This document shows, piece after piece, positions 3,001 to 31,560 of a stretch of DNA of 64,000 nt. The DNA is taken from assembly GCA_000934665.2 (NCBI GenBank), contig KZ538127.1, positions 1 to 64,000 on the forward strand. The letters are read 5' to 3'. Made by a program: the position numbers and the translations under genes. The notes beneath the pieces were generated by a model that saw only the letters and a program-made list of their open reading frames with translations, did not search any database and was not told where the DNA came from. This stretch comes from Catajapyx aquilonaris (lineage: Eukaryota). Within the stretch, counting starts at the first letter, position 1. Each line of letters opens with the position of its first letter.

Positions 3001-6000
3001 CGCAAACTTGGTTCGCTAGAGCAACAGACAGTTGCGCTGGGATTGGAGTCTCGGCTACATGAAGCGAAAATAATGTTATAAAATGGCCATGACGTAAAGA
3101 TTAAATGCTGAAGTACCTTTTATGTTCGTTGACGCTTTGACATGGCAACTTGCAGCTTCCAATTGCATCTGCAGTACTGGATTATTGCTCTGTACATTTC
3201 CATCAATTTCGTCAGTTAATTTCAATCCGAATTTCTGCTCCTCTATTTCACTCGTTTGTTTCTCTGCGGCCATCTGCACATCTTGACTCTGCAAATATTT
3301 CGAACATGTATTGACAAATTGATGCAAAAAAGAAATGTCCGCTAATCCAACCTGTATTGTTGCATTGACTATATCTTCAGGTTTAGTTGGCGGCTCGAGT
3401 TTGGCAGCACGATTGTCTTGGATAACGTTATGAACCACTTTCTTCCATCTAGGCATGGTATGCAGAAGCTGGACTTTTTCTAGCGCCTCCACTTCAATAC
3501 TGCACGCAGGTCGAACCTCATAAAACAAGAACCTGATGGATGGAAGAGTGCGATTAATGTTTCATAAGTACGTAGCACTAATTGTAATTACCTGCATTTA
3601 TCCAGGACTGGAGCACAAACTTCTTTGTACGATCGATTTTGCTCTTGTCGTGTCTTGATTAAATTCCATTTTGTTTGATGCACAATCCTGATGATTTCCG
3701 TCAGCGGTTTGGAAAGTTTGACCGATCCAGAAGTGCTTTCAATTTCTAAGAGGAAATACAGCAATAGCATTATTAATAATAGCAAAAGACTCATATTGCG
3801 GATAATTTTCAAAAAAGTGTCTACAGCATACCTTGTTCGACTAGACTCATTACATGGGGACCCAAAGCCTGGTGCTTGAGAAGAACGGCTAACAAGAGAC
3901 GCCCCATTTCTTCGACTGGATGGTCCGCACTGAACTCCATGTGAGTAAAAAGGTGGTGCTGCTTGCAGTGACGCTCAACCATGCACATTAAAGCTCGTAC
4001 GGCCACATCCTGAGAAATTACCATCATATTAAAAACCAACACTTGCCGAAAAACCTAAGTCGTACGTCAATAAAAATTATATCCCACCTGCAGTCGACTC
4101 TCGGCCAATCCTTGCAGTAAATTGATTGACCTGTCTTCGCATGTATTCTGCTTCATTTGATTAGCCAGGTCCTCCATTTTAGTCACTTTAGGCTCCGTAG
4201 GTGTGGTTCCCGACAGTGGAGTTGCAGCGGCTGAGCTGGTGCTGCGGGCTTCTCCTTTCTCCTCTTCGAATGGGTTCGGAGGATGAAGCACCTGCAGGCC
4301 ACCTCTGAAGAAGTCCGATTGCAGCCATCGGTGACACTCCTCTTCCCAAGCCTGGAGACGATATTATATTTGCATTGATTTTGTACACTACGTCTGTTTG
4401 CAAATGCAAAATCATCTCAATGCAACTGACCTGCAAAGGTGTGCTTTGGACTAAGTTGTGACAGTGAAGCCCGAGGAAAAGTGCCAGGGTGCGCTGGACG
4501 TCCATCAAAGGAGAAGACACAGTGCTGGAATCAAGCACTTGCACTACTTCCTGCTCAGGGTCGATGTAGTTGCCGACAAAGCAAGCCTGCATCATTTCCT
4601 TTGCGGCAGGGGAGTGACATGCGGCTTCAAATGCCTGGGTCGCATCTCTTCCAGAGAAACGCTGCAAGGTTTCACTTCCACATGGAGCTTGTGACCTGAA
4701 GTCCTGCACGTCATAAACCTTGCCGTTTATCAATATCCACAAACCACCATCTTTGTTGTGATTCTCGAGATCTGCTCTGCGGATAACGGGAATGTCTTCG
4801 ACTGGTTTCTGTCCCATAACTGGAGAATGTGAGGAGACTGGAAAGAGCACAGGAAAATTACGCACTCGTCACATCATCAACGGACAATATATTTACCAAT
4901 AATTCCCGGCCACGAAAGGTCCTCCAAGTCTTCCTTGTCAACTCCAGGTGCCAACCGATTGAACTTATCCAGCGAATCCAAAAGGGGAGCCAGTATTGGA
5001 ATAAGAATAACTTTCTGGAAAAACACCTTCACATGCATCTGCAATAATATCAAGCACACCACCAGTTCTGGCAGCAGGATTCCTAAAATCGGAAGACATA
5101 TGATTTTAATAACAAGAAAAGAATTTGCCAGCAATATTGATGGTCCGAGCCTCACCAACAATGTCTTCTTCCATGATGGATGCTGCCAGAGCAAAATGTT
5201 TTCCGCTAAATGACGCTATGCACGAGGCTACTGACAATGTGTCGGAAATGTGGTTGCAGAGCAGCTTCACGTACTTCTTCAGAAGGGATCCCGCTCCCAT
5301 CAGTTCTTGGTCCACTGTAAATGTCCAATGCAATGTCAAGATCAATTTGTTCCGATCTCAACGACACAGTGTCGCAATGCCCATGAAATCAGTTGATTAC
5401 CTTGGCAGCATGCAGCTTTTTCGTCATTTCCATGCGAGTACAGCTCGGCAATGAGCAATCTCTGGAACCGAAGAAGTAGGTCCAAACTGGGCGACTTGTC
5501 GTCGTCATGTTTCTCGCTTCCAGATTCTAGATTCAGGAAGCCAGAGTTGGACATCGACATGTTCTCGGGAGCGACTGACTGCAAACGTGTCAAGGTTTGA
5601 ACACTGGCGTTCCTAAAAAATGGATTTAAAAAACACATGTCAGGGTGAAATATTTCCTTAATGACAATTTGCATTGCCTACCTCAGCAGCTGTTTGACTA
5701 AATGAAGTAGAGGAATAGAAGAAGAGCTCCCGTCTTCTCCATGCGTGACTTCTTGAGTTCGTTTGGTTTCTGATTCGAGCACGGCTTGGTCTGTCATCAA
5801 ATTGTGATGCTTGGATTTGTCTCTGTTCAGACCTTTCTCAACATCCTTCTCACCGAGTTCTTCCAGCTCTTGGAGCTCAACTGCAAATCAGTGAATACAG
5901 CAGTTTATTCAAGTTATTAAAACAAAACTGTACACACGAGAGAATACCTTTTATAGCGGCCTTCAGAGCAGTCTCCAACCCGCCATCTGCCATAAGACTA

Positions 6001-9000
6001 GACACCAACAAATCCGTCATGAATCTTCTTCCTGGGCTGACTCCAGACGGATCGGACCCAGTCGCAGGAAGCAAGCTGGATAAAGCTCGAGCCCTTTCAT
6101 CGGCAGTGGGTAGTAGTATGCTCCACCCTGCTTGTAGAGCCGCCTGTGCCGCACTCTGAATAGTGTTTAGCACTCCAGCGTTACTCGCAAGTTCCACGAC
6201 TCGCTGCTTGAGACTGGCCAGAAGCCTCGAACCCATCTCTAGTCCCAGCGACTCTGGACTCACGCCATGGCTTATCACCGCATGCAGTTGAAGCCTCAGG
6301 AGATTGAGGGCCGCAACGGCCATGCACTCCTTGTCTTGCGATGGAGGCCAATCGGAGCGGCCATCCAAGCCGTCACCCACTTTGCGCAAGAGGTCATCAA
6401 GAAGTGCGAATGTCTGCTCACATATGTCTACAACAAATGGGACTCTCAAGTTGGTGCTCCATTGAGAGCTGCTGCTCCAAACGAAGCTCTGTGACGGGCC
6501 GCATGAAATCCCGACAATCCGCTTCCCCTGAAGTGAACTCAGCAGGGTGGGTTCGCTGACATGACTAGCTCCACCTATGCCTCCGGATATATCCCCGAGC
6601 TGCCCTTGGTCATTACGGCCCCATCCGTACACCTCACCATCGTCAGTGAGGGCAAGGGTATGAGTGGATCCAACCGCAATCTCAACCACCGCCTTCCCTG
6701 AAAGCCCTTCTACCAACTTGGGAAATCGCACATGTTCCTCCGACCCATGGCCAAGACGCTGGTTATCACCTTTGCCCCACGTGTACACCACACCATGTTT
6801 AGTCAGGGCCACGGAGAACTGTGCTCCGCAGTGCACCTTCACTACTTCCAGGCCTTGAAGCTTGTCGATAAGTTTCGGTGTCTTGGATCCATCACTGCCA
6901 CCTCGTCCTACAGAATAAAATCATGTGGTTCATTGCATTTTTACAACTCATTATATCTTATTCAGGAATAATTCTTTTATGCCACATTTACATGCGAGCG
7001 ATTTGATCAGCGATTGTTACTTTCCAAACAATTGGTTTCATCGCTGAGCAAATCGCTCACATGCGACCTTATGCTGCATGTAAATTTCTAACCTCCTTTT
7101 CCACCATATATCGCAGTATCTCACCTAGTTTTCCGTAGTCGCCATCCCCCCAGGAAAACACAGCTCCGTTGTCAGTCACAACCAATGTTTGTGCATCTCC
7201 ACTTCCGCAGGCAATATCAATGATTCGATGTCCCTTCAACGCAGATACGATGGTCGGGGAATTCTGATCCTCGCTGCTACCATGTCCCAACCGGCCGTAG
7301 GTCCCACGTCCCCAAGTGTACAGCTCACCACTGGCAGTTACAGCCGCACTGTGTACAAACCACATCAATTACACTACCATATCGAAAGGGATTACGTCAA
7401 TAACTTGCCTGTATGTGCTGCCACTCGCAACACGGATGACATTTTTCCCAACAAGGCTCTGGATGAGGGTCGGCTCATCTCTGGAGTTGTTATCACCGTG
7501 ACCCAATCTGCCACCATCACCGCTGCCCCACGAGTACACCTCACCGTCAGAACACAGGGCCAGGAAATGCTTCCCATCAGCATGGGCAGCAACCTGAACC
7601 ACTTCCTTCTCCCCGAAACCTTCAAGTAGCTGCGGACACTGAAAAAAAAACAATGGTCATTACAACGTCTACTTGCTGGACTTTTCGCAGCATCCTAACC
7701 TGTGTCTCGGAGCTGTAGTACATGACGTAGACTTGACCAGAAAGTGTCAGCACCAACAGGCACCTCTCGGCACAGCAAACCTGCCTCACGCCCAACTCTC
7801 CGATGGCATCACAGAATTGTGGGGTGGTAGTCGGAGAGGATGACGACCCACCATTGTTGCCCCCACCATTGTTGTTCCCATTGTTGTTTCCACACCACGC
7901 CAACCAGCCGAGGGACAACACTTCTTGATACTGGCCAGATCCCTGAGCCTATCGCATACATCAATTATTATCACAGCCATTGTTACTTCCAAAAAACATA
8001 ATGGCCCAAACCGTACCTTGCAAAATGACGTGGGTGGTGCGTATGGCACTGCAAGTCTGTCCAGATGCGACATGATGACCACTGCGGCCTGCCTGAGATC
8101 CACGGACACTTCGTCATATTCTGGCAGCTGCAGGAAGCGTAGGAAGCACTCGGTGGGACTAACGAGTGGGTTGGCCGCTCCTTCCCCCCACACCTCGGCT
8201 TCCGACACACTTCTGCTCTTGCTGCACAGAATTTGATCAAATCTGCGCAGGATTGGGAGCAACGGAGTGCTGGTGCCGGACGACACCATCCGGTTGTCCA
8301 GCTCGTACTTTCCTTTGTCCCAGAGATGCAGTAGCAATAGGACAGCTTCCAAAACACGGCTCAATGACCCTTGCTGGGCAGCCAATTCCAGCAAGAGGCA
8401 CAGTGCTGTATGGCGATCAGCCGTTGGGATGTTGGTCAGGCCGCATCCACCGTCATTTACATCTCTGAAATTGTAACCATTACTGCATTAAAAATTATGA
8501 CATTGAAAAAAAAAGGAAGAGTATAAAAATGGCTAACCCTAACACGACTGATCTGAGGAACTTTGAGGCCCGGTCCACCACTTCCAGCCAAACGGATGAA
8601 ACCGATCCTTCGTCAAATAGGGTCGCTTCTGGAAGTGACTGAAGCGCTTCTAGGGCTTCATGAAGCAGCTCGGTACAAAGATCTGCATCTTCACCCGACC
8701 GCCAAGCCCGACGCAGAAACGCAAAAGCAAAGCTCAGAGCCGCTCTCGACCCAACTCGAGCCAATCCAAGAGTTGCCTTCTCGCAAGCTTTCACGCTGAA
8801 ATATAAAAGTGAGAAAATTACTTTTCTTCTAACAATTTGTGTCGAGAGTTTGTACCTCTTTGGATCTTTCACGATAGTGGCAGTTGCATTGCTCATCTTC
8901 CGCTTTGGACTCCTCCCCATGTCATGCGGCATATGACGACTTAATGCTATAAAGTACCGCTGGATTACGACCAAACGTTGTCTTAATCGGCATGATGAGA

Positions 9001-9530
9001 GGGTGGAACCGGCCGCATCGCCACAAAGCGTCTTCTGCTCGTAGATTAGCGAATTCAGGCATGACTGCAGCTTCTCTATTCCTAAATGGGAGGCAATTAG
9101 TGCATGTTTGCGGCGGTTGGCGCTAAACAGTCGTACCAGGCTGCTGCCCCCATGTCCAGGTGTCCATCATTCCTCTTGAGGGCGGCGGCACCTTTCCTCC
9201 CTGCTCCTTCCTCTCAACCTCCTCTCGGTCCAGCTTCTGGCACGGCTGGCAGTTGCACCCAGTCTGCGGCCCGCATATCCCGTCGCAGCACGGACAAGTC
9301 AGCACCCTCATCCCGCAGTAGTAATGCCCGCTCTCCCCTTTCCGCGAAGTGATCCCCACGGAATTGAGCAGCCCCTCGCTGAACGCCCCGGTCAGCTCCC
9401 CATCCTTGACCATCTCGTTCCACAAGTGGCACAACCCATCTCGGATGAATGCCCGCTGCAGGTCCGTCTTCAGCCACTTGCCATCCAGCCTGGACTGTGT
9501 CCGCAACACCACTTCAACCTGCCTGGACAT
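1..9530 (-). CDS. HERC2: HERC2 giant E3 ubiquitin ligase, 5' part (continues beyond window start)
   Basis: The N-terminus [32 protein letters not shown] and [30 protein letters not shown] match HERC2. Domains in order: RCC1-like repeats (WGxGDxGRLGHG), cytochrome-b5-like, MIB/HERC2 ([17 protein letters not shown]...[11 protein letters not shown]), UBA-like (LMEMGFSR), start of CPH (YKRRCD). Frame-consistent exons (minus): 9137-9530, 8856-9081, 8538-8795, 8017-8464, 7700-7948, 7409-7638, 7125-7348, 5948-6907, 5682-5880, 5401-5612, 5156-5314, 4897-5082, 4431-4837, 4088-4351, 3832-4009, 3592-3745, 3352-3532, 3117-3288, 2464-3054, 2212-2387, 121-2142, 1-37. Confidence 0.96.
6986..7085. mobile_element. 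Short palindromic MITE-like element in a HERC2 intron
   Basis: Inverted arms 6991-7014 and 7040-7063 are complementary at 22 of 24 positions. Related copies lie at ~23823-23930 and ~27299-27413. Confidence 0.6.
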
Positions 9531-9900
9531 CCTGAAGCGGTGCTAGCTCCAACGCATCGTAGTGCCTATCACCTCATGTCTCTGCAAAGAAAGTTTGGAT
9601 TGTAACGTACTGGAAGTACATTTTAATGCTGCGTACACTGAACGGATTGCACCGGTATGACTAGGGCTTACCCTGGCGACAACCAGGACTGAACCAGACA
9701 ACCTCTGGTGTGTCTGCAAGGCTCTGAAGTTCTCCAGGGTTTCTTCCAATGTCACTAAACCACCAGATGATCACCAAAATAATTCCACAGGACCTCTTCC
9801 TTCAGTGTTCCTACGCCTCCATATATCCACTATCGACTAATTATCCGGATGTTGGGTCCCGAAGGAAGTCACCAACTGTTCCAAAAATAATTTAACAAAT
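9531..9900 (-). other. HERC2 5' UTR with an intron (9582-9671) and short uORFs
   Basis: GTAAG donor at 9671 and tttctttgCAG acceptor ending at 9582. uORFs are MEA* (9811-9822), MR* (9569-9577) and MRWS* (9543-9557). The TSS is approximate. Confidence 0.6.
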
Positions 9901-12165: not shown

Positions 12166-12329
12166 GGATTGTTCCCGAATGAATCTAACAGTCCAGCCAA
12201 AGGATCCAAGAGGCAGTGGAAGGCACCTGCTGACTCAATTAGCTCCAAACTAGGTATATTTTGTCATATGTTTTGTTGCAGTAGTTGATTGTTGAAAAAA
12301 ACAACAATTAATAACAAGGGTTCGATTTC

Positions 12330-13406
12330 ATGAACTGGCCCTACCATTATCATCTATCTGAAGGTGAGATGCCCTGTGCCAACAGCCCAAAGATGGAGAT
12401 GTCGAGAAGGACGAGGAGCATCAGTAGGAGTAACGTTGCGGAGCTGGAACAACCTCAGACGCAAGCGCTGGATGGGTACGGGCTCAGGCTTGTCGCATCG
12501 GCTGCGTGCTACCCGATGGATTACGCTAAGATACTGATGCAGCTGGGTTTTGAGCCGATTCCGCCTCAGCCTGGAAGGACGCTCTTTGGAAGCCAAGCCC
12601 TTTTCCTGCCGAATGTTTTCAAGTACATTGCTTTCATAAAGCGTCAGGATGGGTTTCTCGGATGCTATCGGGGTTTGACCCCTCGTATCCTGACCAGCGT
12701 GGTAAGCAGGATGACCCATCAGAAGGTCACGGAGGTGCTGAACGAAAAGTTTCCTAATGAAGACCATACCAGCCCAGAGAATAGCAAATCTGAATCTACA
12801 GGAGCTGAGTTCTTACGTGTCGTGAGCCATGATCTTCTTGCACGACTTGTTGCTTTGGTTGCGAGTCAGCCGCTACAAGTGATCACAATCCGATGTGTGG
12901 CACAATTTGTGGGCAGGGAGACAGTGTACAGTGGAGTATTTGGTGCGGCCTGCGAGGTATACAGAGAGAATGGGATACAAGGGTATTTTCAAGGGCTTGT
13001 GCCAAGGCTGGTTGGAGAGGCTGTCTCCGTCTGCATCACCAGTGGGCTCGTGTACCTTGTCAATAACTATGTGGGACACAATAAGGATCTACTAGTATGT
13101 GCACAGCCAGTCATTTCGTTATTTGCCACTTCCATCACCTATCCCTACCAAGTTGTGAGCACCTGCATGGCTGTCAATAACTCTGGCCTGGCTCTCAGCC
13201 GTCCACCTTACATGATCAGCTTCGCCTCATCAAAGGACTGCTACGACCACCTGGCTCGCGCAAATCAGCTGAAGAGAGGTGGATCCATCTTCTTCCGCTT
13301 CTACACTGGACCATACGTTACAGTGAACGGAGAGATGGTGGCCACGCAGATCAGCACCTCAACCACCCATAAGCCTGACATCCCAATCAGGAACACTGGC
13401 AGCTAA
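12330..13406 (+). CDS. MTCH2: Mitochondrial carrier homolog (MTCH2-like), intronless copy A
   Basis: YPMDYAKILMQLGFEPIPPQPGRTLFG...LPNVFKY...DGFLGCYRGLTPR, QFVGRETVYSG and MAVNNSGL are MTCH-family signatures. Single 358-aa ORF; the start codon is uncertain among several ATGs. Confidence 0.9.
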   Translation: MNWPYHYHLSEGEMPCANSPKMEMSRRTRSISRSNVAELEQPQTQALDGYGLRLVASAACYPMDYAKILMQLGFEPIPPQPGRTLFGSQALFLPNVFKYIAFIKRQDGFLGCYRGLTPRILTSVVSRMTHQKVTEVLNEKFPNEDHTSPENSKSESTGAEFLRVVSHDLLARLVALVASQPLQVITIRCVAQFVGRETVYSGVFGAACEVYRENGIQGYFQGLVPRLVGEAVSVCITSGLVYLVNNYVGHNKDLLVCAQPVISLFATSITYPYQVVSTCMAVNNSGLALSRPPYMISFASSKDCYDHLARANQLKRGGSIFFRFYTGPYVTVNGEMVATQISTSTTHKPDIPIRNTGS

Positions 13407-13534
13407 ATGCAATCAAGCTTGTGCCCAATTGAAGTAGTCTAAATTGGAATACATCAGTGCATACATATTCGCAAGAGGCCAATGAATATCTTACGGAGGA
13501 TATCAAACATGCACTATGTAAGTCTGTGACCCCT

Positions 13535-13720
13535 TCTCTACAATGTACAATTTAACCGCAATTAATTAAACAAATTTGTTGCAGATTTCATCTTGCCCTT
13601 GCAGGTCAATATACACTGAGGTTGCTTCCTCTTAAACAATGATAACAAGTTGTCCAGCATTACATTTTTGGAACTGACAGTGAGCAACTGGGTGACCTTC
13701 TTCCAACCACTTGATTCGCA
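13535..13720 (+). pseudogene. Decayed remnant of a second MATH-gene copy
   Basis: 13535-13635 aligns to 10745-10885 (tctacaatg..aaccgc.att..ttg(ct)gcagat..tttc.tcttgccc..gcaggt.aatat.cactga.gtt.ct..tcctctta). gaccttcttccaac at ~13694 resembles gacctccttccaaac (DLLP) in the MATH CDS. Confidence 0.55.
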
Positions 13721-14379
13721 CAGGAAATGCCATTTTGGATACGGATTGTGAAAAGACAGCTGATGTTCGTGGCACTGGCGTTTGTGCAGTAATGTTTCCT
13801 CTTTTAAGTTCTATTTCTTGAGGCTAGTGATGAAAAGAATATGAAGAAAAATCTGTTTTATCAGGCTATGACTATAATGGCTTTTAAATATTGATATTTT
13901 AATGTCTTTGTAACAGTGGATAATAGGGCCAATAAACATATTTCTACCTGTTTTTTTCTGGTTATGACTAATGGCTACATTTTATATAAGCAACAGTCTA
14001 AAATGTAAACCACAGTGTCAATAAACATTTGTAATAAGGATCATGCTTACATAATTTATTACTTTTTTCCACAGTAATTGTCGTCCACTAATTATTAGAG
14101 GTTGCTAGACAAATGAGGTAACCTGCGAACATTCTTTGTATTCTCCCAAAATAGTCAACTGCAGGTTTTACTAAGGTGTTTTTAACTGCCGGAGACATCC
14201 AGTTTGATACTGAATAAATCTTACGGTCCAGCCAAGCATCCAAGAGCGGCTCCAGAGGCCTGCAAGCCATCGGCTGATTCAAAAGCTGCCTTCAGTTCCA
14301 ATTAGGTATTTGCATATTTGTTTGCAGTTCCTGTTAGTTGCCTATTGTTGCCAGCAATAATTAGAATGTTATACCATAT

Positions 14380-15444
14380 ATGTCTGAAGAGGAGGTGCCC
14401 AGTACCAACAGCAACAAAGGAAAGATGGAAACGTTGACATTCAGCATGAGCTACAGCTGGGGGAGGAACATGGCCGAGATGGAACGTTATCTCTTACAAC
14501 CACTGGATGGGTATGGATTCAATATTGTAGAATGGGCTGTCAGCTACCCGATGGAATACGCCAATATGCTGATGCAGTTGGGGTATGAACCGATGCCGCC
14601 ACGGCCTGACACGACAATCTTCGGAACCTCAGCCCTGTATCTGCCAAATATTTTTCAGTACATTGGCTACATAATGAGTCGGGATGGGTTTCTGGGATGC
14701 TATCGGGGTTTGGCTCCTCGTATGGTGACCAGTTTCGTAAGCAAGTTCACCCATCGGAAGATCAAGGAGGTGCTGAAGAAGGTATTTCCCGATGAAGACA
14801 TCGCCAACCCGGATGAGAACGACAAACCTGAATGGAGCGGAATCAAGTTCTTACGTTTCGTGAGCCTCGATCTTCTTGCACGACTTGTTGCTTTGGTTGC
14901 CAGTCATCCGCTACGTGTCGTCACAGTCCGATGTGTGGCACAATTTGTAAGCAAGGAGACTGCGTACACTGGAGTATTGTCTGGAGCATGGGAAGTATAC
15001 AAACAGAATGGCATAGGAGGGTATTTTCAAGGGCTCATGCCGAAGCTGATGGGAGAGGCTGCCTCCGTCTGCATCACCAGTGGGCTCATGTACCTTGTCA
15101 ATAACTATGTGGGACGCTATAAGGATCTAGAGTTTTGGGCATGGCCAGTTATTTCGGGGGTTGCCATCTCCTTCACCCATCCCTACTCAGTCGTGAGTAA
15201 CTCCATGGCTGTCAATAACTCTGGCCTGGCCATCAGCAGTCCGCCTTACAATATCAGCCATGCCTCATCAAAGGACTGCTACAACCACCTGGCGCACACA
15301 AATCAGCTGATGAGAGGTGCATTCTACTTCTTCCGCTTCTACACCGGACCATATGTTATGGTGAATGGGGAGATGGTGGCCAAGCCAACCTCCATCTCAA
15401 CCACCTATGAGCCTGACATCCTAATCAGGAACACTGGAAGTTAA
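14380..15444 (+). CDS. MTCH2: Mitochondrial carrier homolog (MTCH2-like), intronless copy B
   Basis: 354-aa ORF colinear with copy A (YPMEYANMLMQLGYEP, DGFLGCYRGLAPR, identical C-terminal IRNTGS*). AATAAA at 15514-15519. Confidence 0.9.
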   Translation: MSEEEVPSTNSNKGKMETLTFSMSYSWGRNMAEMERYLLQPLDGYGFNIVEWAVSYPMEYANMLMQLGYEPMPPRPDTTIFGTSALYLPNIFQYIGYIMSRDGFLGCYRGLAPRMVTSFVSKFTHRKIKEVLKKVFPDEDIANPDENDKPEWSGIKFLRFVSLDLLARLVALVASHPLRVVTVRCVAQFVSKETAYTGVLSGAWEVYKQNGIGGYFQGLMPKLMGEAASVCITSGLMYLVNNYVGRYKDLEFWAWPVISGVAISFTHPYSVVSNSMAVNNSGLAISSPPYNISHASSKDCYNHLAHTNQLMRGAFYFFRFYTGPYVMVNGEMVAKPTSISTTYEPDILIRNTGS

Positions 15445-17756: not shown

Positions 17757-19950
17757 ATGTCAGGGTTGATGCTGAACATTGTGACGACTCCGGCCAAACA
17801 GATAAGACCGGCTCAACAGGCGAAGAAGCCAGCCGTTGATACAAAACGGCCAGCTCCTATTAGGTACATTACATATTTTGTGTTGTATACAGTGCAGGGT
17901 ATGCTGACTCACCTTGTACATTCCATATTTTATATTGTACAGTGCAAGGTATGCTGACTCACCTTGTACATTACAGACCTGTCAGGAAGCTACAGCCAAA
18001 ATGGAGCGTGTCTGACGTTGAGCCCAAACCGAAGCGGACAGGCGAGCCGCTACTGAAGCAACATCTGCAGCCACCTGCAGGGAAACGCAGCCGTTCAGAC
18101 CAAGATGAGCCGGAGCCAAAGCGTAAGAAAGTTGGGGAAGTCGTCAGGACGTCACTGTTCACCGGAATGGTGCCGGAACCACATGTGAACATCGCGTCAA
18201 CCACGGCCATAAAAGAGGAGCTGTTCTCATCTAAAAGTTTCTCCGACCTGTCCATTCTCAACCCGCACCTTGTCCGCGTGTTGTCCCAGCAACTCTCGGC
18301 TGACCAAATGACCAGCATACAATTGCATGCTGTTAGTACGTTGCTGCGTGAGAGTACAGACCATGGGGAGGACCGCGACGTGATAATCCGGGCCGAGACA
18401 GGCTCTGGAAAGACGTTGGCGTATGCAGTTCCGTTGATTCAACGTCTGATGGCGATGGAACCTAAAATAAAACGGACTGACGGCACCCTCATGCTGGTTG
18501 TGGTTCCAACCCGGGAGCTGGCGCAACAGACTCTAAAGGTGATTACGGCGCTGAGTGGATGCTGCAAATGGGTCGTGGCAGGCGCTGTTTACGGCGGGGA
18601 TCGGCGCAAAGCTGAGAAGGCACGGCTACGGAAGGGCATCAATTTGCTGATTGCGACTCCAGGCCGCCTGCAGGACCACCTCAATTCCACAGCAGTCCTG
18701 GACCTCAGTCGGGTCCAGTGGTTGGTCTTGGATGAAGCGGATCGGATGTTGGAGCTTGGGTAATGCTGTTCTCTTAGTTTTGGTAGGTCACGACTGATCA
18801 ATTTGTCACTACACGTAGGTACCAAGTGGCTCTGAAGAGCATAATCGCAGCTGTCCCGGAGCGACGTCGGACAGTATTGCTCTCGGCAACTATGCCCCCG
18901 GAGGTGGAGCAGTTGGCGGCTCTAAGTCTGCGAAACCCGCTCAGAATCGAGTGCGAGACATCCGAAGCGGTTGCGGACATGCCTCTCGTGGCGCCATCTA
19001 GCCTGAAGCAGGCTTACATCATTCTTCCACCAAAACTGCGACTCGTGGCCACACTTGGGTTCCTACACTCGACGGCTGAACAGTCGCCAACAGGAGGAGT
19101 GAAGGCTCTTCTCTTCTTGGCTACCCAGGCACAAGTTGACTTCTTTGCCGACCTATTCTGCCTGGAAGAAGCTGCGGCTGAGGAGGACAATCCAGGTAAG
19201 ATAGTCTGAATGGAACTCTCATGTAAGTGCTAATGTTGCTGTCCAACAGATCCGAGTCACATATCAGTCGACTTCTTCCGCCTGCATGGCTCCATGGACC
19301 ATGGCGAACGTCAGCAGGTGTTCCAGAACTTCCGCAAGGCACGTTCAGGCGTCCTTTTGACAACGGATGTGGGTGCTCGTGGAGTGGACATTGAGGGGGT
19401 CAATCTGGTTGTCCAGCTGGATCTTCCCTCAACCCCGGAAGATTATCTGCACCGTGTGGGCCGAACAGCACGAAGAGGCCGCAGTGGAACTAGCCTCACC
19501 ATTCTCATGCCATCTGAGGCTGGGTTTCTAGAAGTCTTATCGCAACGAAGACTTCATCCGGAGCAGACATCGCTAGAGCGTGCTCTTGGAGATTGGGCTC
19601 GGTCGGACAAGCTCAAAGCAATGCAAGAAAGGATCGAAGATGCAATTGAGGATGATAAGAGCCTACGAGAGAAGGCCGTGAATGCGTTCCGGTCATGGCT
19701 ACGTTCATATGCAGGGAGGCCAAGGGTAGCAAAGGAAGTGATGCCCTTTCACCAACTGCATCTGGGACACTGCGCTAAAGGGTTCGGACTGTCGAGGGCA
19801 CCTTCGCAGTTGGGAAGTTTCGCATGGAAAAAGCCAGACAAGAACGAATGGTCCGAGTCAAGGAACCAGGGTGCCAAGCAAGGGATGAGACTTGGACATG
19901 TGGACGTATTGTCCGAGTTTGACTCTGGGCTCCCTAAGAAGAAAAAATAG
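17757..19950 (+). CDS. DDX31: DEAD-box RNA helicase DDX31/Dbp7 (655 aa)
   Basis: Exons 17757-17863, 17977-18759, 18819-19195 and 19250-19950 join in frame. Motifs AETGSGKT, PTRELA, DEAD, SAT and HRVGRTAR, plus the DDX31-typical RKAEKARLRKGINLLIATPGRL. Confidence 0.9.
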
Positions 19951-20238: not shown

Positions 20239-22719
20239 TCACTGACGCTTACTCTTGGCAGCCTCCGAGAGCAACTTGTCCACCCGCCTCATGACTTCAG
20301 GATCCTCAGACTTATAAAGTTCCTCTGCTTCAGCGTCCAACTGACTCAGTTCCCGTTCGCCCTCCTTGGTTTTCCGATTAACAGCATCTATTTTGGCCTT
20401 CACCATCCTTGCAAACTCGTTGCACTGTGGACAAGACGAATAAGATAATTTCAATAAGTAGGCATGATAAACCATGCTATAAACAGCGTACTCACCTCTT
20501 GCGCTATTATACGCATATTCTTCTGGCATTCCTCCATCCTCTGGGCAGACTTATTCTTGCGTTCCTTTTCTTTCAAGTCCATATCTTTCAGCAGCATCTG
20601 TACTTCTTCCATACCGGCATGAATGCCTTGCAACTTGTTGCGCTTGGACTGAGCCTCTTTCAGTTCTATCTGATGGAGCTGCTCCTTCTTCCTCTTCGAC
20701 CACTCCATTGAGGCCTCCGCCACCTGCACCTTCAGCAGCTGGGCCTTCGACACCGCCATGCTCAGGCGCTTCTCCTGGTCCGCATACGCCAATTTGGCAG
20801 TGCTCGTCTCCGATTTAGCCACTCGGAGTTCTTCTTGGACAATTCTGCAATGAGTGCATTATGTAACTACAATAAAACTGCAGGATTTTTTAAAAAGTGG
20901 ATGAAACTCACTTTAGCTGTGCGGCATAATCCTTCAGATTCGCCATAGGTCCAGCCAGATTGTCTGCATCTTTTAAGAGCAGGCTGAGCTTCTCCTCCTC
21001 GGAGTGGAGCTGCCGCAGTTGTACCCTCTTCTTCCTACATACTTCTCGCTTCTCCTCAGCTTCCGTTTCCATCTCCTTCACCTGGTGCAAGGTGCGCTCA
21101 GGGCTTGTCACCTTCTGCTGACGTAACGTCGACAGCTCGTCTTGTAAGCGGTTCATTTTAGATTGGAAGGACGAAAATGCCTCCTCCACATTCATCTTTT
21201 CCTTGCCCATCTCTGAAACCTCGACGTCCAATGTGTTTTTCTCCCAGTCCATTGTCTGCAAATAGAGTGTTGGTCACAGCAGGGCAGTAATTACAACTGA
21301 GGATTGGAACAAACCTGTATTTCTTCCTTCAGTTCATCAATTTGACCTTCCAGCTCCCGCCCGTGCAGCATGGCCTCAGCCCTGGCCACCTCCAACTCCC
21401 CTCTCCGCCTGATGAGAGCCCCCACAGTGTGCGCCGCCTCCTCCTGCCTATCCCTGGCCAGAATGCAGTTATCCGACACCTGTTCCACATGCATCTCACA
21501 TCCGGGCATGTAAATCACAAAGTTCAGAATAGCGGACAAGAGGCGATCAGTCCGCTTCGGATTCGGCTGCAACAAGTCATTCAGACGAAAGTCGCTCACC
21601 CCCAACTTCCCCAGCACGTTTTGCATCGCCATCTTCAGGTACAACAAATAGCAGCTGCCCTCATAGTTATTATCCCTCTCCTGCTGCGACATATTCCTCT
21701 GCAAAAAAATAAAAATAAAGAGTAAACAAATAAATATCATTTATAAAAGGAGGGGGGAGGTTGTTTTGGCAAAGTACCGTATGGCATAGTGTAATATTTA
21801 AATTTAATATTGAGTGTCTGTCGTCTGAGGTGGGCAGGGGTGGGGTTGTTTTTAGGTTTATTTTCACGAGTTTTAATTATTAGTTCGTATGTTGGGTTAG
21901 CTTGCGTCTCCCTTCATCGCTGACTACCCCTCATAGGGAAATGTCGTGACGCTGATGATGATAATGATGATAAAAGGAAAGTTTGTTTGTTTGTCCATTT
22001 CATACCCATTTGGCAAATTGTGTTTGTTTGTCCGTTTCATACACAATTTGTACCTGTAGGGCAAAAGCCAGCAAAATCTGTGTTTGTCTGTTTGTTTGTC
22101 CATTTCACGCCCACTTGTTTGTCCATTTTATGCCCATTGGGTAAAGGCAATGTTTGTTTGTTTGTCCATTTCACGATACACAATATTCAAGAATGCCAAT
22201 AGGGCAAAAGCAGTGTTTGTCCAAATTTTATACCCAATTCACATGTACGTACAGGTTAATAGCAATATATTATATGTTTGTTTGTCCATTTCATGCCCCC
22301 AATAGGCAAAAGCGAAGTTTGCTTCTTTGTTTGTCCATTACTGTACCCAATTCCAAACCAATTCCATATGTATACCCTTCGTGGGTATTAAAGGCGGTGT
22401 GTCTGTTTGTTTGTCCAGGTTTTCAAGGCACCGGAGTAACGGCATGGCAATAATAACCTGATGGGGGTAAATCGTATGTTATTCCAGACGTTGTAGTTGT
22501 TGATATAATTACCTGCATGGCACCCACGACGTCGTAGCGCAGGTAGTCCAAACAGTGCAGGTAGATATCCTGCATTGTTTTGGAAGTGGGCTTGGCCAGG
22601 TCCTGTTCGGTCAGGTGAGCCAGGTCGGGGAAGATCGCGTGGATCATGCCCACCTGGTCGTCCTTCGGGTAGATCGGGAAGCTCAGCACCTCCCCTTCCA
22701 TTGCCCCAAGATCGGCCAT
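20239..22719 (-). CDS. NUF2: Kinetochore protein Nuf2 (Ndc80 complex, ~489 aa)
   Basis: Exons 22513-22719, 21315-21698, 20912-21255, 20496-20844 and 20239-20424 are in frame. N-terminal SFPIY...LTEQDLAKP...IY and GVSDFRLNDLLQPNPKRTDRLLSAILNF fit the Nuf2 CH domain, followed by a long coiled coil. Confidence 0.85.
21975..22420. repeat. Degenerate tandem array of TGTTTGTTTGTCCATTTCA-containing units in NUF2 intron 1
   Basis: About 9 recurrences of tgtttgtcc(a)ttt with variable spacers, several containing gggcaaaagc. Confidence 0.8.
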
Positions 22720-22826
22720 CCGAGACCCTTTCTTTGGTCGAAGGAAGGAAGGGAAAAAAGGCAGACCAAAGAAGAACGAAGGAGGAAAATGTCTTTCACG
22801 TTCGACACCAACGACCGTTGCCGCTT

Positions 22827-22928
22827 CAGGGTTGCCAGACGGTGCCTCCCTCCCACCAGAAGGAAACAGGGTTACCAGATGTTCAGTCACGTGACAGTCA
22901 CGTGATCAAACATGGCCCCCCCGCCAAA
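22827..22928. promoter_or_regulatory. NUF2 promoter motif cluster
   Basis: CAGGGTTGCCAGAC 22827-22840, CAGGGTTACCAGAT 22867-22880, tandem E-boxes GTCACGTGAC 22886-22895 and GTCACGTGAT 22897-22906, AAACATGGC 22908-22916, E2F-like CCCGCCAAA 22920-22928. Confidence 0.65.
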
Positions 22929-23440
22929 TATGAAATCAGCTCATCACCAGTCAATATAATTATATATTTTTTTCACAGTGTTTACAGATTCTGCAAACAA
23001 TAATATAGTACAAATGACTTTCCAAAAAAAAAGAGAGAGAGAAAAAAAAACCAACGTATCGTATGTGCTCAACAATCAACGTGTACAGGACCGTCTTAAA
23101 ATACGTTCATAATATTAATAAAAGTCCAGCTGAAACTCAAAATCATTGCAACATTGGCAAGATTTGCAAATTTGATTTTTTTCGGGGGGGTCACAAACAG
23201 GCATACAAACACACTTTAAAAAAAAAATTAATAATCACACTGCACCAAACATATGTCTCGCCTTATGTTTAAAAATCACAAGGCCTTTTGGAATGGCACT
23301 TTAATAAAGCAAAAAAAAACACCCTTTGCGGATGGTGAGAATTACAAGGTTTCATTGCAGTTACAACCTTGTAATTCTCACCCTTGTTAAGCACCTGTCG
23401 CGTTTTCAAATCTTTGGTTGCTCCATTTTTTTTATTTTTT

Positions 23441-26400
23441 TTAGCCCTGGTACTGGAATCCAAAGTGATCGTTAGCTTGCGAGCGAGGCACGCTCCTCTG
23501 GAACTGCGGCACAAACGCCTGATGTCTTGTGCTCTGCGCTGGCGTGTACTGCACCGCGCCAAACAGGTTTTGGAATGGGCCTGCGTTGAATCCGCCACTT
23601 GATTGCGGAGGTGCAAACTTCCCAGGCGATTTCAGGGCATTGAATCGGAGGAGGACAACCCCTGATGGATTCACATCAACAGCAATCTTGCTCTCGGGAA
23701 CCAGAACTTCATACTGCTTGTTGTCAAACAAATCCTGCAACAAGAATTATTGTCCACTGTAACACCTTAGATCCACAGGAATGTTAGACAAGCTCGAGAC
23801 GTAGTTGCAAATAAATGAATGCGTTTACATATGAGCAATTTGATCAGAAATGAGCATTGCTTAGCAATGAAACCAATTGTTTAGGGTGAAAGTAACAATT
23901 GTGTTTTGCTCCAATCGCTCATACGTAAACACATCCTTATGCAGGTAATTTCACTCCAAACTGACCTCAGCGTGATATCCACCGACATGTCCCAACCCCA
24001 GTTCCCTCAGAGTCACAGTGACCTGCGATGGAGTCCCATCCGTCCTCCTGTTCACGAAGGCCACAGCGTACGAATAGTCTCCCTGAACCACCGGTGCCAC
24101 CGGCCTAGTCCATATCTCGATCTGACGGTGCTTGTAGATCCGCCTGCCTTGGATTCCCAGTGGGTCCTGGTCCACTGCGATGACTTTTCGGTTCTGAAGG
24201 ATGGCCTTGTAATCAGGCTTCATGGTACGGAGATCCACGGACATCAGAAGAGGGGCTGCCAAAATGGCCCATATGGCCATCTGAGTCTTGCTCTGCTCGT
24301 AGCTCAGGCCGAAATTGCCAATGATGAGCTGCGATATGGGAAATTATCCTACATGTCTGCATATGCTACGAGACGAACTTTCATTCTGTACGCCATACCA
24401 TGTCTGGGTCATTCCAATGGCCTGGTCCAGCATTTGGTGCAATGGTATTCTGGTTGTCTCCGTAGTAGTCAATAATGGTCGAGACACTGTCCCACGAGTC
24501 CTGGATATCATTAAAATTTCGCCACAAATTGCAGGTTTGGATTATGGCAGTGTAGTTGGGCTGAAAATTACCATCAAGATTATCACACGACTATGGAATT
24601 TAAGCGTCTGAATATTGCGGAAACAGCCACAGCAATTAGAACCCTAATGAAAACTACAAATACGCTATGAAACGACTACTGAAAGGAATGTGGGTTGAGC
24701 ATTATTAATTATCGTGCATTGTGGTTTACCTGCATAGACGAGTGGAGTTGGTAAAAAGGCCAGCTACATGAGTATACCATGCTCCGTCCGGTTCGATTCA
24801 GATAGTAGCCAAACTCAGGATAACCTGCACACGATACGCCATTGCAAAACATATGATCGCATCACAATATTTACGACAATTCATCTGAGCTCATTTGATT
24901 GAAGCATTTAAAACTGGGCCTGCGAAGTGCTTCACATTCCGAAAAAACCAAAAAGTTACGCTCAACCCTGCGTTACTGGGTTTTTCATGCAAGGTTAAAA
25001 TTAGTATGCATGAAAACTGTCTTTTTTTTGTGAGGTTTTACATCACCCGTTGTTTTTTTTTAATGTTTCAGAGGCATGCTTGAAATAATTACCAGTATTT
25101 GGAAAGTATTTTTTTCCTTTCTGTTTCACATGCAAACCCACATCCCTCTCTCGTTATGATTACATGTGCATCAGTAATTACAGACATAAATCTTAAAGCA
25201 AAACTAAAAGCGCAACAAGGGCTACGAATCAAATTCTGGGGAAATAATGTGTAATTACATTACTACAATATACTAATTTACCGACCACCCTGTATATATT
25301 GTGACTAACTACTGTGAACTACTTTTTTAACATTTTCTAATGCATTGCAATGCAAAAACACAGTGGGCCTAATTAAAAATGTAGGCTACATTATTTTATA
25401 TTTCTGTCATTGGTAAAAATCTGTTATTTTGGTCACTACAACCGAATACAATTATTATTAAAGCAACTTAATTATTCCTGCTCAAATATTTAAGCATAAC
25501 TTCCCATTTGCTCATCGTAGAAATTTCATATCCAATCACACACCAGAGATGGGCATCAAAAAAATAAAACAACTACACGACCATACTCTCTAGCTTTAAA
25601 AAATACTCACTTCTCAATCTCATTACTCATTACCTTTCTACATTAATTTTACTTTTCAGAATAAAGGATTTGCTCATGGATTATTATATCATATTCGCCA
25701 TTGAGTAATTCTTTCATTGAAAGTGGCCACATACAAACATGTATTTTACGAATGAGAAAGGCTCTCTATAATGGACCCTGCGGAAACTAGCTAATTACGC
25801 AACTTTTGTGAGTCCAATGGAGGATTTTAAACAGACAAGTAAATCCATTCCAGATGGAACATGTTTGCAAAACAGATGGGCTCTGGTAGAGACAGGTTTC
25901 ACCGTATTTACAAAGAGTGGAACAGAGAACCAGAACCAGTTGCTTACACAACAAGGCATGGGAACCATGGTGGGAAGCATTTGATCACGTCTCAGTCATT
26001 ACATGACGGAGAGAAACTCTCCTATTGAATCTGAATAGTGAACTACAATGCGAGTTCTCTAATCGACCAACAATATATGCAATGAAGCTCTCGATGACAC
26101 CTGAGCCTGTAGGTGTAATCAAACAAATGCAAGCTGTGAATATCACGCTCATCAGTACACGGCCAGAACATGTCTAGGCCATTTGTGCAAAGTTATTTAA
26201 AAATGTCATGCACCAAATAAGAAATGTCAGAAAAGGAGAAGAAGAGAGTGGCGGTTAGGGACAGTATGTCGCAAGGGTGATCTAACCTTCATTCCACTTG
26301 ATGTTTGATAGACAGGCCAAGAGCATGAGTAAACCATTGGACGACCGGTCCGATTCATGAAGTATCCGAATTCAGGGTAACCTAAGAAAAACCCGATGAG

Positions 26401-28130
26401 GAAAGCAAAAAAAAGGCAAAAAAAAGAGGAAATGTACACTGGGTAGGGGGCCATCGTAATGTGCAAAATAATGCAACATGGGTTAGGCTTTAGTTAGTAT
26501 GAACATATTATGAAGCGCTTGTCATTCTGGATATTAAAACCCAAAGTGTAGCAAAGGAAGCCCATTTCAATTGCTTCAGTATCATTTCCAATTTTGACAA
26601 AAATTGTGTACCAAAAAGCAGCCATAATTAAATAAGGTTACGCCAAAATAATTTTAATGCAGATTCATCTTATCCAAACGTATTGAGTTGAAGATGTCAA
26701 ATAAATTAATCATTGCAAAATCCTGCGGAGAGTCCTTGCTTTCATATAATTTTCCCCCCCATATAACAAGAGCATTTTGACAACTGGTCGAGAACAATAG
26801 TGACACTAAGGTCATTAATAATATTCTGTCAGATTCACCAGGGCTCACAGGTGTGTACACTGCACTAGTGTCCATCATTTTGAGCATGTGGCGACCTTAG
26901 CCACAGACACACTATATTTATCGCCTGATATTTCCTGCAAGTAGTGAGATTTACGTACATGGTAAGTGACATCTATCTCATACCACAGGGAGAGGATCAA
27001 CAAAAAATCTGCACCAAAAACATGATCATATGACTCTGACAGTGCAATACAGATGGCTGCTTTTTGAAGCACATGAGTCACTTGCCAGCAGTTCTCGCCC
27101 TTTTTGTAATCAACAACAGTGTCAGTTTTGCGAATAAATTCAAGGTCTCAAAATGCACTGCCATACGCCCATTACAAGGAAATGCTGTGCAAGCCAAAAA
27201 CAAGCGGCATTCCTATCAACTTTTACTGATGCTGCTGATATTTTCCATACATCTCATTACAATTTGTAACTATTTTTTTTCCTCTGCTCATAAGGCTGTG
27301 TTTACATGTGAGCAATTCTCTGGGCGATAAAACCAATTTTTTGGAGGCGAAATTGATTGTTTGCCTCAAACAATTTATTTCATCGCTCATGATGCGAATC
27401 GCTGACATGTAAGTGCGGCCGAATGCAAAGAACTGCCAGCAGTAAACAGTAAATAAACTGCAATAATAATGAAAACAGTTTGTCACGAAGGCAACTTACC
27501 CCGATCCATGTCTGACGGATGGGAGTAACATCCGTCCAACTTGACATAATCTACATCCCAATCGGCAAAGGTGTCCGCATCCGTCTCCAGGTGACCCAAG
27601 ACACCCGGATACCCTGCGCATGTGTAGTTTCCGTAGTCTTCATAAATGCCAAATTTCAGCCCTTTGCTGTGAACCTGTCAAGGAAAACATTTACAATTTT
27701 TGGGCAACCATGATTTCAGAAGTACTCACATAATCCGCAAGTGCCTTAATTCCGCTAGGGAATCGATAAGGGTCAGGTGTAAGCCTCCCGTAGGCGTCCC
27801 GTGCTTGGGCCAACCAGCAATCATCTATATTCACATACTCATACCCAACCGCCTGGTAGCCTTCGGACACCACGAGGTCCGCCATCGTCTTGAACAATCG
27901 TTCACTGCAGATCCAAAAAAAACACGTTATAACACAATCGCACCCTAATTTCTAAACAGCACAAACCTAATGCAATTATCAGGATCATTAACGCAATCGG
28001 TGTTGCATCTGAATCTCTCCCAGGCCAACCATCCCATCGGAGGTGTCCTGGCCAGTCCGTTATCCAGAGCATCTCCTGGACAAACCAGAACCGCGAGGGC
28101 GGACAGGTACAGAAGTAACCTGGCCTCCAT
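23441..28130 (-). CDS. NAGA: GH27 alpha-N-acetylgalactosaminidase/alpha-galactosidase precursor (475 aa), with two alternative versions of exon 4
   Basis: Signal peptide, then [37 protein letters not shown] (nucleophile Asp), LWRNFNDI (acid/base Asp), [11 protein letters not shown] and DQDPLGIQG. Exons 27967-28130, 27730-27904, 27500-27674, [26287-26381 or 24730-24824], 24399-24560, 23966-24328, 23441-23734 total 1428 nt. Confidence 0.94.
23823..23930. mobile_element. MITE-like element, second copy (NAGA last intron)
   Basis: Termini gtttacatatgagc.att ... aatcgctcatacgtaaac, and internal atgaaaccaattgttt..gaaagtaacaat shared with the reverse complement of the 6986-7085 element. Confidence 0.6.
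24730..24824 (-). CDS. NAGA: NAGA alternative exon 4b ([32 protein letters not shown])
   Basis: CAG acceptor, GTAAAC donor, 95 nt, phase 1 to 0, open frame. Paralogous to exon 4a. Confidence 0.88.
26287..26381 (-). CDS. NAGA: NAGA alternative exon 4a ([32 protein letters not shown])
   Basis: Long polypyrimidine tract and TAG acceptor, GTTAGA donor, 95 nt, phase 1 to 0, open frame. Confidence 0.9.
27299..27413. mobile_element. MITE-like element, third copy (NAGA intron 3)
   Basis: gtttacatgtgagcaatt..gcgataaaaccaatt ... aaacaattt.tttcatcgct..aatcgctgacatgtaa. Internally palindromic and related to the other two copies. Confidence 0.5.
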
Positions 28131-28402
28131 ACTGCTACAAAAGCTGCAAAAAAATATGCATTAATTAAATTAACAAGTCGACACATGCGAGCACACACAC
28201 TGACGGAATCAAAATCCTCCAGAAACCACTCACATAAAGACTGGTCATTTCGAGACCCATTGTGCGTAATATCACTCCAAATCAGCTTATGAACAATACA
28301 CTAACCAAAAATATATCTCCAACCTCACTCTATCATATCACAATTACTCATTCATACAGCTGTATGCAATGTCGTACATCACACATGTCCAACCTTATTA
28401 AA

Positions 28403-30274: not shown

Positions 30275-31485
30275 ATATGCAGACGGATTTGTCTATAGAA
30301 AATACTTGTTGGCATGAAGCAAGCTGATTCCTGTGGCCATGGAATTGACCCAGTAACATTCTGAAAATTGATTCTGTAGAGTTGGAAGTCTAATATTATT
30401 ATTTCGCCAGTAGCAACCGCCAATTCGTCCATTAGAAACGAGCTATAAACATGAGTATGAAGCAATAGTGACGCCAAGTGATAATCGGATAATGACCGTC
30501 TAATATTGTCGTACGCATTATCGTACAAAGCTGCATATGTTTGCATTTTTTCAAAAACGAGTTTAATCACCGGTATAACCCCCGTAAGCTACTCTTACAT
30601 CAGGGAAAAGGAAAAAAAGCGTGTGCATGATGGGTGTGAACAACAAATAATTAACGATGGTTTCAATGTCATTACGTGTACTGTACAAGATCGAGTCGAG
30701 GTCATCTCTGAGAGAAGGTGCGTCAAATCTGTCCCTTTTTTTTTTTGGTCGTACGGCTCTTTTATGTTGACCAAGGATTATCCGGCTCGTCTCAACCTTT
30801 CCCAAGGCCCATCAAAGTCAAGCAGGCACAATGTGGAGCAAACTAGGTGGGGGAGAACACTGGAGAAAATCGTCGCCCGAAGGTTGCAGGTGAGGAGGAA
30901 AAGTGGAGGAGAAATCACTAAGGAGCCCACTTTGTTTTTAGAAGAGGGTTCCACACCAAAAGGAATCCATCTTTTCTTCTGTACTTTTTCTTCTGCTTAT
31001 TATTAATTCTCTTTCCCTCCACTTTGTAATATATAATAGTAAAAAAAAAAACAGTTTTCCAACTCCCTTTCGCTTCCATCAAAAAAACTAGTCTAATTGC
31101 CATCATTATTTATTCATTCAGCACAGATGATGCTATAGATTCACTTTCTTCGCGCTCTCTAATGTACAATGTTTCACTCATTTTGACAGCAAAACCTGTC
31201 ACGTGAAAATTAACAGGAATTTTAATTTTATACTGATGGTCATCAAACGCTAATAATTAATAATAATGATGATTTTGTATGGAAGCAATACATATTCAAT
31301 TTTTCTTATTAAAGTCGACAAAACTGGGCTTAATGTTTTCACAAACTATTCCACAATGCTTATTGTTATGTCTATTATTATTGATTGATTGATTGATGTT
31401 TATTCCCAGTGAAAAATATTTGACATGCTCTTTTCGGCGACTTCTCATATTAATCCTTTACACTACGCCACTACGGTATATGTGG

Positions 31486-31486
<1 letters not shown>

Positions 31487-31560
<74 letters not shown>
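31487..31560. repeat. (TTA)n microsatellite, ~25 units
   Basis: Perfect run seen directly. Confidence 0.98.

Follow-up and report, generated by a model that had tools for sequence, protein, structure and literature searches.

A GH27 glycosidase gene of Catajapyx aquilonaris with two, most likely mutually exclusive, exons for the N-acetyl recognition loop

The DNA analyzed here (“the window”) comprises 64,000 nucleotides (nt) of Catajapyx aquilonaris, positions 1 to 64,000 of the forward strand of contig KZ538127.1 in GenBank assembly GCA_000934665.2. It encodes a seven-exon gene of glycoside hydrolase family 27 (GH27), similar to alpha-N-acetylgalactosaminidase (NAGA) and alpha-galactosidase (GLA), which extends from 28144 to 23354 on the minus strand and possesses two versions of its fourth exon, 4a and 4b. 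The exon borders were set by a spliced contig of 1613 nt and depth 52 from the RNA run X1. The kind of this run is not on record, although the spliced contig indicates that it contains cDNA, and the results from it refer to the assembled contigs of a single run. All introns of the gene are of the GT..AG type, and four of them are only 55–231 nt long. The parts of the gene are as follows.

Exon 1, 27967..28144, minus strand: 5' end as given by the RNA contig, ATG at 28130, signal-peptide-like N-terminus (spliced contig, open reading frame)
Exon 2, 27730..27904, minus strand: contig joints at 27904/27967 and 27674/27730, flanked by GT..AG introns of 62 and 55 nt
Exon 3, 27500..27674, minus strand: ends in phase 1, contains the KLDGC stretch with the nucleophile Asp (Pfam Melibiase_2, E = 5e-23)
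Exon 4a, V-type (CSWPVY), 26287..26381, minus strand: 95 nt, phase 1 to 0 (spliced contig, Pfam, PDB alignment)
Intron between 4a and 4b, 24825..26286, minus strand: 1462 nt
Exon 4b, F-type (CSWPFY), 24730..24824, minus strand: 95 nt, phase 1 to 0, open frame, intact splice sites (Pfam, PDB alignment)
Exon 5, 24399..24560, minus strand: CNLWRN..DIQD stretch with the acid/base Asp (contig joints, NAGA alignment, Pfam)
Exon 6, 23966..24328, minus strand: last part of the catalytic barrel and first part of the C-terminal beta domain (contig joints, Pfam Melibiase_2 and Melibiase_2_C)
Exon 7, 23354..23734, minus strand: C-terminal tail, stop codon at 23443..23441, 3' untranslated region to the end of the contig (spliced contig, open reading frame)

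With either 4a or 4b alone, the gene product has 475 residues. The Pfam profile Melibiase_2 (PF16499), which has a curated cut-off of 23 bits, matches exon 3 (82.2 bits), 4a (30.2), 4b (30.5), exon 5 (81.2), and exon 6 (79.6), and the exon matches are consecutive on profile positions 86–284. Both 4a and 4b match above the cut-off at the same profile positions, 146–172. Exon 3 aligns without gaps to the chains of human GLA and of NAGA and exon 5 to those of human and chicken NAGA, and both catalytic Asp residues are kept. We take these to be the nucleophile, in K-x-D-G-C, and the acid/base, in R-N-x-x-D-I-Q-D, roles that are given in part by PMC548690. By its profile matches and the two Asp stretches, the gene is a member of GH27. 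An earlier interpretation of the window from its letters alone (the sequence-only reading) had given coordinates for 4a and 4b that agree with the present ones, and the exon upstream of 4a is corrected to 27674..27500. A tblastn search with the exon peptide found no second GH27 gene and no third copy of exon 4 within the 64-kb window.

Exons 4a and 4b lie where the sequence-only reading had placed two paralogous 95-nt exons of the same phase, with AG/GT borders, open frames, and matching translations. The splice borders are TTCTTAG/G and AAG/GTTAGA for 4a and GTGCAG/G and CAG/GTAAAC for 4b (the slash marks the exon border). Of the 95 nt, 61 are identical between the copies, as are 24 of the 32 encoded residues, and the DNA likeness ends at the exon borders. 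Comparison of the 32 codons gives 12 identical codons, 12 synonymous changes, and 8 non-synonymous changes, in keeping with the earlier claim of strong synonymous divergence in a conserved protein (pS 0.85, which is saturated, and pN 0.22). When the 34 differences were placed at random in 100,000 trials, none kept an open frame with at least 24 identical residues (mean 11.9, maximum 20). The loop Ser is encoded by two different codons in the copies, TCT and AGC, which are two base changes apart. These comparisons indicate that purifying selection is acting on both exon copies, beyond what chance would leave. Ser, Tyr, Cys, and an NRT sequon are common to both exons. Five of the eight residue differences fall in the last nine residues, and just one, the Val or Phe of the loop, is at the mapped pocket place described below.

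It is conceivable in principle that the likeness of 4a and 4b is due to chance or to an assembly artefact and that 4b is not an exon, but this reading is refuted by several lines of evidence and no point was found in its favor. A tblastn search of the whole window with one exon peptide finds the other with E = 4e-16, and both exceed the Pfam cut-off over one and the same stretch of the profile. Moreover, the X1 contigs match the region, with no letters listed as differing, and the annotation of 10 decapod species shows such a pair as well.

The reading frame separates the two exons. As the sequence-only reading had predicted, a transcript with both exons or with neither is shifted in frame; the former reaches a stop after residue 211, eight codons into 4b, and the latter after residue 187, compared to 475 residues for the single-exon form. 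Exclusivity is thus enforced at least by the reading frame. Steric exclusion of the splice sites is ruled out by the 1462-nt intron between the exons, which is too long for it, and all sites are of the GT-AG type. The splice signals of 4b are ordinary for this gene and no weaker than those of the constant exons, including its donor (CAG/GTAAAC). In the 25 nt before the AG, 4b has 14 pyrimidines and the five constant exons have 13–16, while 4a has 20, the strongest tract of the gene, which fits 4a as the default form. A search for docking/selector pairing of the Dscam type, covering the introns of this gene, gave no significant pairing, with the best inter-intron pairs at chance level (reached by 25 of 40 and 31 of 100 shuffles) except for one marginal 16-nt pair around 4b, described below.

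The same exon is exchanged between annotated isoforms of decapod alpha-N-acetylgalactosaminidase(-like) proteins. Decapod records were retrieved by protein searches with the 4b frame, exon 6, and the F-type region of a shrimp, followed by cluster look-ups. All eight isoform pairs of equal length (Penaeus vannamei, P. chinensis, P. japonicus, two in Cherax quadricarinatus, Homarus americanus, Petrolisthes manimaculis, and P. cinctipes) differ solely within the 32-residue exon, by 8–11 residues. The three isoforms each of Scylla paramamosain and Eriocheir sinensis likewise differ only there in all six pairwise comparisons, and in Panulirus ornatus both types are present in isoforms of unequal length. 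Example records are P. vannamei X1/X2 (XP_069987897, XP_069987902) and S. paramamosain X1–X3 (XP_063866965 to XP_063866967). The two types are marked by the motifs CSWPVYQT.(S/A)G and CSWPFYQI..(R/K/H). Exon places 24, 27, and 30 are Val, Thr, and Gly in the V-type and Phe, Ile, and Arg, Lys, or His in the F-type of all 10 decapod species; in the window, 4a has Val, Thr, and Gly and 4b has Phe, Leu, and Ser. The decapod isoforms therefore resemble the window gene in the exon that is swapped and in showing the V/F contrast at the same three places, although they are database models.

The order of the exons is also the same, as the V exon precedes the F exon in two read-through gene models of Petrolisthes (P0214 and P0213). 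In addition, run assemblies contain full-length spliced F-type proteins (P0201, on 4 contigs, and P0314), which could not be read from unspliced DNA, so that the F exon is used in mature decapod mRNA. The V-type forms occur on 29 and 42 contigs, and the F form is apparently the minor form in shrimp. An F-type gene model was also found in the isopod Armadillidium. The mutually exclusive arrangement suggested by the sequence-only reading is thus strongly supported by the decapod isoforms and F-type transcripts, and for Catajapyx itself the use of 4a was seen. Taken together, the two exons are most likely members of a conserved cluster of mutually exclusive exons by which the N-acetyl recognition loop is exchanged.

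Crabs have a third variant in the same exon slot, which the window gene lacks. Its loop is CEWPWY or CEWAWY and it is found in Scylla X3, Portunus, and Eriocheir X3; the E/W-type protein of Eriocheir (P0301) is on 17 run-assembly contigs, and a further E/W-type protein is P0313. The crab loop aligns without gaps with CEWPLY of GLA. In the exon tree, this variant nests among the malacostracan F-type exons and looks like a later duplicate that gained the Glu typical of alpha-galactosidases. By its residues, the crab variant points to selection on exactly two pocket places, and it lends new and independent support to the idea that the exons switch specificity.

In gap-free alignments to PDB chains, the loop position at which 4a and 4b differ corresponds to Ala in NAGA (CSWPAY) and to Leu in GLA (CEWPLY), and the preceding Ser corresponds to Ser in NAGA and Glu in GLA. 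The residue mapping of the sequence-only reading was therefore correct. According to PMC5645117, human GLA and NAGA exchange their specificities when the residues at both places, Ser/Glu and Ala/Leu, are swapped, which bears out what that reading had stated on a two-residue swap, and the PDB matches include an engineered GLA that carries CSWPAY (3lx9). The N-acetyl recognition loop of chicken and human NAGA consists of Ser, Ala, and Tyr (PMC548690). Relative to a NAGA-type pocket, which is small at both places, the window exons keep the Ser and have Val (4a) or Phe (4b) rather than Ala at the second place.

On this basis, a somewhat probable explanation is that 4a and 4b are mutually exclusive tandem exons of a lysosomal-type GH27 alpha-N-acetylgalactosaminidase/alpha-galactosidase and that their products differ in the pocket wall facing C2, with Phe biasing the enzyme to galactose (Gal) or otherwise narrowing it. 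Each exon supplies one version of a 32-residue piece that contains the NRT sequon, a Cys that is presumably disulfide-forming as in solved GH27 structures, and the whole N-acetyl recognition loop (Ser, Val or Phe, and Tyr), while the catalytic Asp residues are encoded in exons 3 and 5, which are constant. One exon would be chosen per transcript, and transcripts with both or neither would hit an early stop and be removed, probably by nonsense-mediated decay, or give a truncated product. The isoforms would then be the same enzyme with an altered pocket wall facing the C2 substituent of the sugar. A small Val may let the pocket accept N-acetylgalactosamine (GalNAc), and a bulky Phe may leave less room for the N-acetyl group and bias the enzyme toward Gal or narrow it in another way. 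Judged from the loop residues, a GalNAc-versus-Gal switch between the isoforms is plausible.

A number of observations weigh against this explanation, beginning with the RNA of Catajapyx. The spliced contig of depth 52 joins 27500 to 26381 and 26287 to 24560, so that 4a is used and 4b is skipped, and 4a is the main form in the sample seen. Of the junctions that the sequence-only reading proposed to check, these two were found, whereas those of 4b (27500 to 24824 and 24730 to 24560) were absent from the contigs of this run, an absence that is not evidence of non-use because contigs drop rare variants and the run is small. The sole contig over 4b (24663–24905, depth 3) follows the genome without a splice into the intron on either side. 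A pair of 16-nt segments brackets 4b, and just 2 of 100 mononucleotide shuffles scored as high:

Candidate stem arm upstream of 4b, 25135..25150, minus strand: 16 nt, 88% complementary, pairs with 24681–24696
Candidate stem arm in the intron between 4b and exon 5, 24681..24696, minus strand: partner of 25135–25150

This pairing would loop 4b out and could favor its skipping, and we regard it as a lead only. The possibility that arises is that 4b is no longer a coding alternative in Catajapyx but a silent relic of an old duplication, or acts only as a “poison” exon that breaks the frame of transcripts in which 4a is also present. The skipping of 4b in the main transcript, its unseen junctions, the unspliced and low-depth RNA over it, the stop eight codons into 4b on joint inclusion, and the candidate stem would all suit such an exon. 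Nevertheless, the frame of 4b is open and its AG and GT are intact and equal in quality to those of the constant exons. None of the 100,000 random placements preserved the protein as well, and the pocket Ser was retained across the two base changes between TCT and AGC. Exon 4b also keeps F-type features common to decapod and branchiopod exons, and one small contig run cannot show absence of 4b use. Loss of the coding role of 4b therefore appears improbable, and 4b is probably used in Catajapyx.

Two further features of the X1 contigs were observed in this gene. Colinear RNA of low depth (2–3x) forms a patch at 24663–25376, which takes in exon 4b and some 550 nt of the preceding intron, whereas other parts of the two long introns are uncovered; both candidate stem arms are inside this patch. 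In the last GH27 intron, a joint of the type “opposite strands” at 23856–23906 (depth 44) and several loose ends at 23822–23906 may represent a chimeric contig or another transcript.

The taxonomic distribution also counts against a general role for the pair. A metagenome scan yielded 80 loci, of which 14, representing 15 gene copies, have exons 3, 4, and 5 all present. All 15 copies, some of them collembolan-, termite-, ant-, or copepod-like, have a single exon 4, and the exon-pair arrangement is not general in arthropods. Among the sequences fetched, Daphnia and Daphnia-like sequences have the F-type exon only, and one Daphnia-like locus has just a short intron separating exon 3 from the F exon, with no V exon between. 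In the sequence fetched from the centipede Strigamia, F is the sole form and is located in an otherwise V-like exon. As both Daphnia and Strigamia have F alone, F-type enzymes may be general-purpose. The copepod, barnacle, collembolan, and insect sequences fetched are V-type only, except for a divergent group of Drosophila paralogues with F, and the second loop place is most often Val, with 143 of 186 motif matches among the arthropod sequences fetched.

The age of the pair was assessed with a tree of exon peptides (32 columns), in which 4b groups with branchiopod and malacostracan F-type exons with a Shimodaira-Hasegawa-like approximate likelihood ratio (SH-aLRT) support of 85, and 4a with V-type exons, next to a copepod (SH-aLRT 84 and 90). 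However, a sister grouping of 4a and 4b is not rejected by the approximately unbiased (AU) test (p 0.45, or 0.53 without the V/F column). As an AU test with 32 columns cannot reject a lineage-specific duplication, no dated common origin is claimed; a common origin with the decapod pair would be the simplest reading of the exon sequences but is not established. The window protein is 64–78% identical to the best 30 relatives fetched and about 68–73% identical to the decapod isoforms. In the gene tree, it forms its own branch in an unresolved clade of Pancrustacea and centipede, within the same orthologue group as the decapod isoforms.

Other GH27 sequences vary at the same loop place. The divergent Drosophila paralogues (P0263, P0272, P0280–P0282, P0285, P0286, and P0288) have CSWPFY(K/I), and an ostracod GH27 orthologue (P0238) has CSWPYYQL. 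Based on these sequences, an aromatic residue at the Ala/Leu pocket place has arisen or been kept many times in arthropod GH27. The metagenome locus L071 was the sole locus with two loop stretches, and these are not mutually exclusive exons but belong to two complete tandem genes. The two GH27 genes, located on one strand at L071:3477–6854, have their own full exon sets and very short introns, the first with the GLA-type loop CEWPLY and the second with the NAGA-type loop CSWPAY, and represent a two-gene solution side by side.

The loop residues themselves limit the proposed change of specificity. Both window exons have Ser at the first loop place, where GLA has Glu, and neither carries the Glu and Leu pair of GLA. 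A GLA-type pocket, with Glu and a bulky residue, is therefore absent from the window exons, and Glu occurs only in CEWPWY/CEWAWY of crabs. Because the published swap changed both residues, the V/F change alone may not switch specificity. Enzymes of the NAGA type also accept Gal to some extent (PMC548690; PMC5445309).

These points favor a different account, in which the exon pair is real and used but the difference lies in aglycone or glycoconjugate preference, stability, pH profile, glycosylation, or tissue regulation instead of GalNAc versus Gal. Ser, Tyr, Cys, and the NRT sequon are unchanged between the exons, and the residue differences are concentrated toward the exon end, with one alone at the mapped pocket place. 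The occurrence of F as the sole form in Daphnia and Strigamia, the recurrence of aromatic residues in arthropod paralogues (Tyr in the ostracod, CSWPFYK in Drosophila), and the partial acceptance of Gal by NAGA-type enzymes noted above are in line with this account. On the other hand, the one place that always separates the types (Val or Phe, and Trp in the third exon of crabs) contacts the N-acetyl group in solved enzymes, and the crab variant also swaps the other specificity residue to a GLA-like Glu. We give considerable weight to a difference unrelated to GalNAc and Gal but consider it the less likely account, and return to an altered pocket wall as the favored explanation. Of the sequence-only reading, the mutually exclusive exons are strongly supported by comparison with other species, the residue mapping is upheld, and the functional claim is still something that we infer.

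Comparison with known systems places the exon pair in context. Vertebrate GLA and NAGA share with the window gene the fold, family, catalytic residues, and the loop deciding whether the N-acetyl group fits (PMC5645117). However, vertebrates have the two loop versions in two genes (Ser/Ala versus Glu/Leu), while the window has Ser/Val and Ser/Phe exons in one gene. It is a tentative possibility, in our view falling short of probable, that the crustacean GH27 exon cluster (two exons here and three in crabs, with Ser/Val, Ser/Phe, and Glu/Trp) does by splicing what vertebrates did by gene duplication. One locus would then produce GalNAc-accepting and Gal-restricted enzymes, with 4b giving the Gal-biased form and the balance set by tissue or diet. 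A caveat on the contrast of one gene with two, and a further limit on the functional claim, is that decapods also carry other GH27 paralogues (P0072, P0240, and P0260).

In Caenorhabditis elegans, the single GH27 gene gana-1 is credited with both activities, similar to what is proposed here, but GANA-1 has a single NAGA-type loop (S186, A189), its dual activity comes from one protein, and the available text mentions no alternative exons (PMC548690). The starfish alpha-GalNAcases I and II are GH27 isozymes whose difference in Gal side activity is ascribed to the same CSW stretch, although the residues named are others (C171 and W173 are replaced) and the available text does not state whether one gene or two is involved (PMC5445309). 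As for the splicing arrangement, exons of the arthropod myosin heavy chain type are also adjacent, homologous, equal in length and phase, and used one per transcript, and replace gene families found elsewhere (PMC2257972; PMC9741552).

Full-text literature searches found no publication on alternative or mutually exclusive exons in the GH27 gene family. Tandem-duplicated mutually exclusive exons are well known as a kind, and the GH27 case is notable for the loop that is encoded and for the E/W variant of crabs. Compared to mutually exclusive exons in general, the window gene is distinct in swapping the substrate-recognition loop of a lysosomal glycosidase. To our knowledge, mutually exclusive exons that swap the substrate-recognition loop of an enzyme are rare.

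The GH27 gene is located in a gene-dense region of the window. Just downstream of it, a DDX31-type DEAD-box helicase gene (17864–19950, plus strand) and a gene for the kinetochore protein NUF2 (20239–22905, minus strand) converge. The best identities of the DDX31 neighbor are 44–47%, and its named matches are from a pseudoscorpion, a bug, a fly, and a barnacle. Together with the GH27 gene tree, these matches point to an arthropod, probably a pancrustacean, without close relatives among the sequences fetched. The region of DDX31, NUF2, and GH27 has very short introns, whereas 28.3–64 kb is AT-rich with few long open reading frames and includes a long ATT/AAT trinucleotide run at 31440–31560, which appears as poly-Ile or poly-Tyr in the open reading frame listings, and (GA)n runs near 35.8–36.1 kb. 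At the other end of the window, large open reading frames on the minus strand (100–9600) with MIB_HERC2, cytochrome b5-like, and RCC1-repeat domains represent the 3' part of a gene for a HERC2-like giant E3 ligase. Two open reading frames of ~360 residues with mitochondrial carrier repeats, 2 kb apart on the plus strand (12315–15444), are probably tandem paralogues.

Exons that exchange the recognition loop of an enzyme are natural experiments, as the rest of the protein remains constant. If the V, F, and E/W forms do differ in their preference for GalNAc and Gal, splicing and gene duplication would have reached the same end in this family. The exons would also amount to a ready mutational series for the two sites at which the human enzymes of Fabry and Schindler disease have been re-engineered, and the annotation and counting of GH27 genes in arthropod genomes would be affected.

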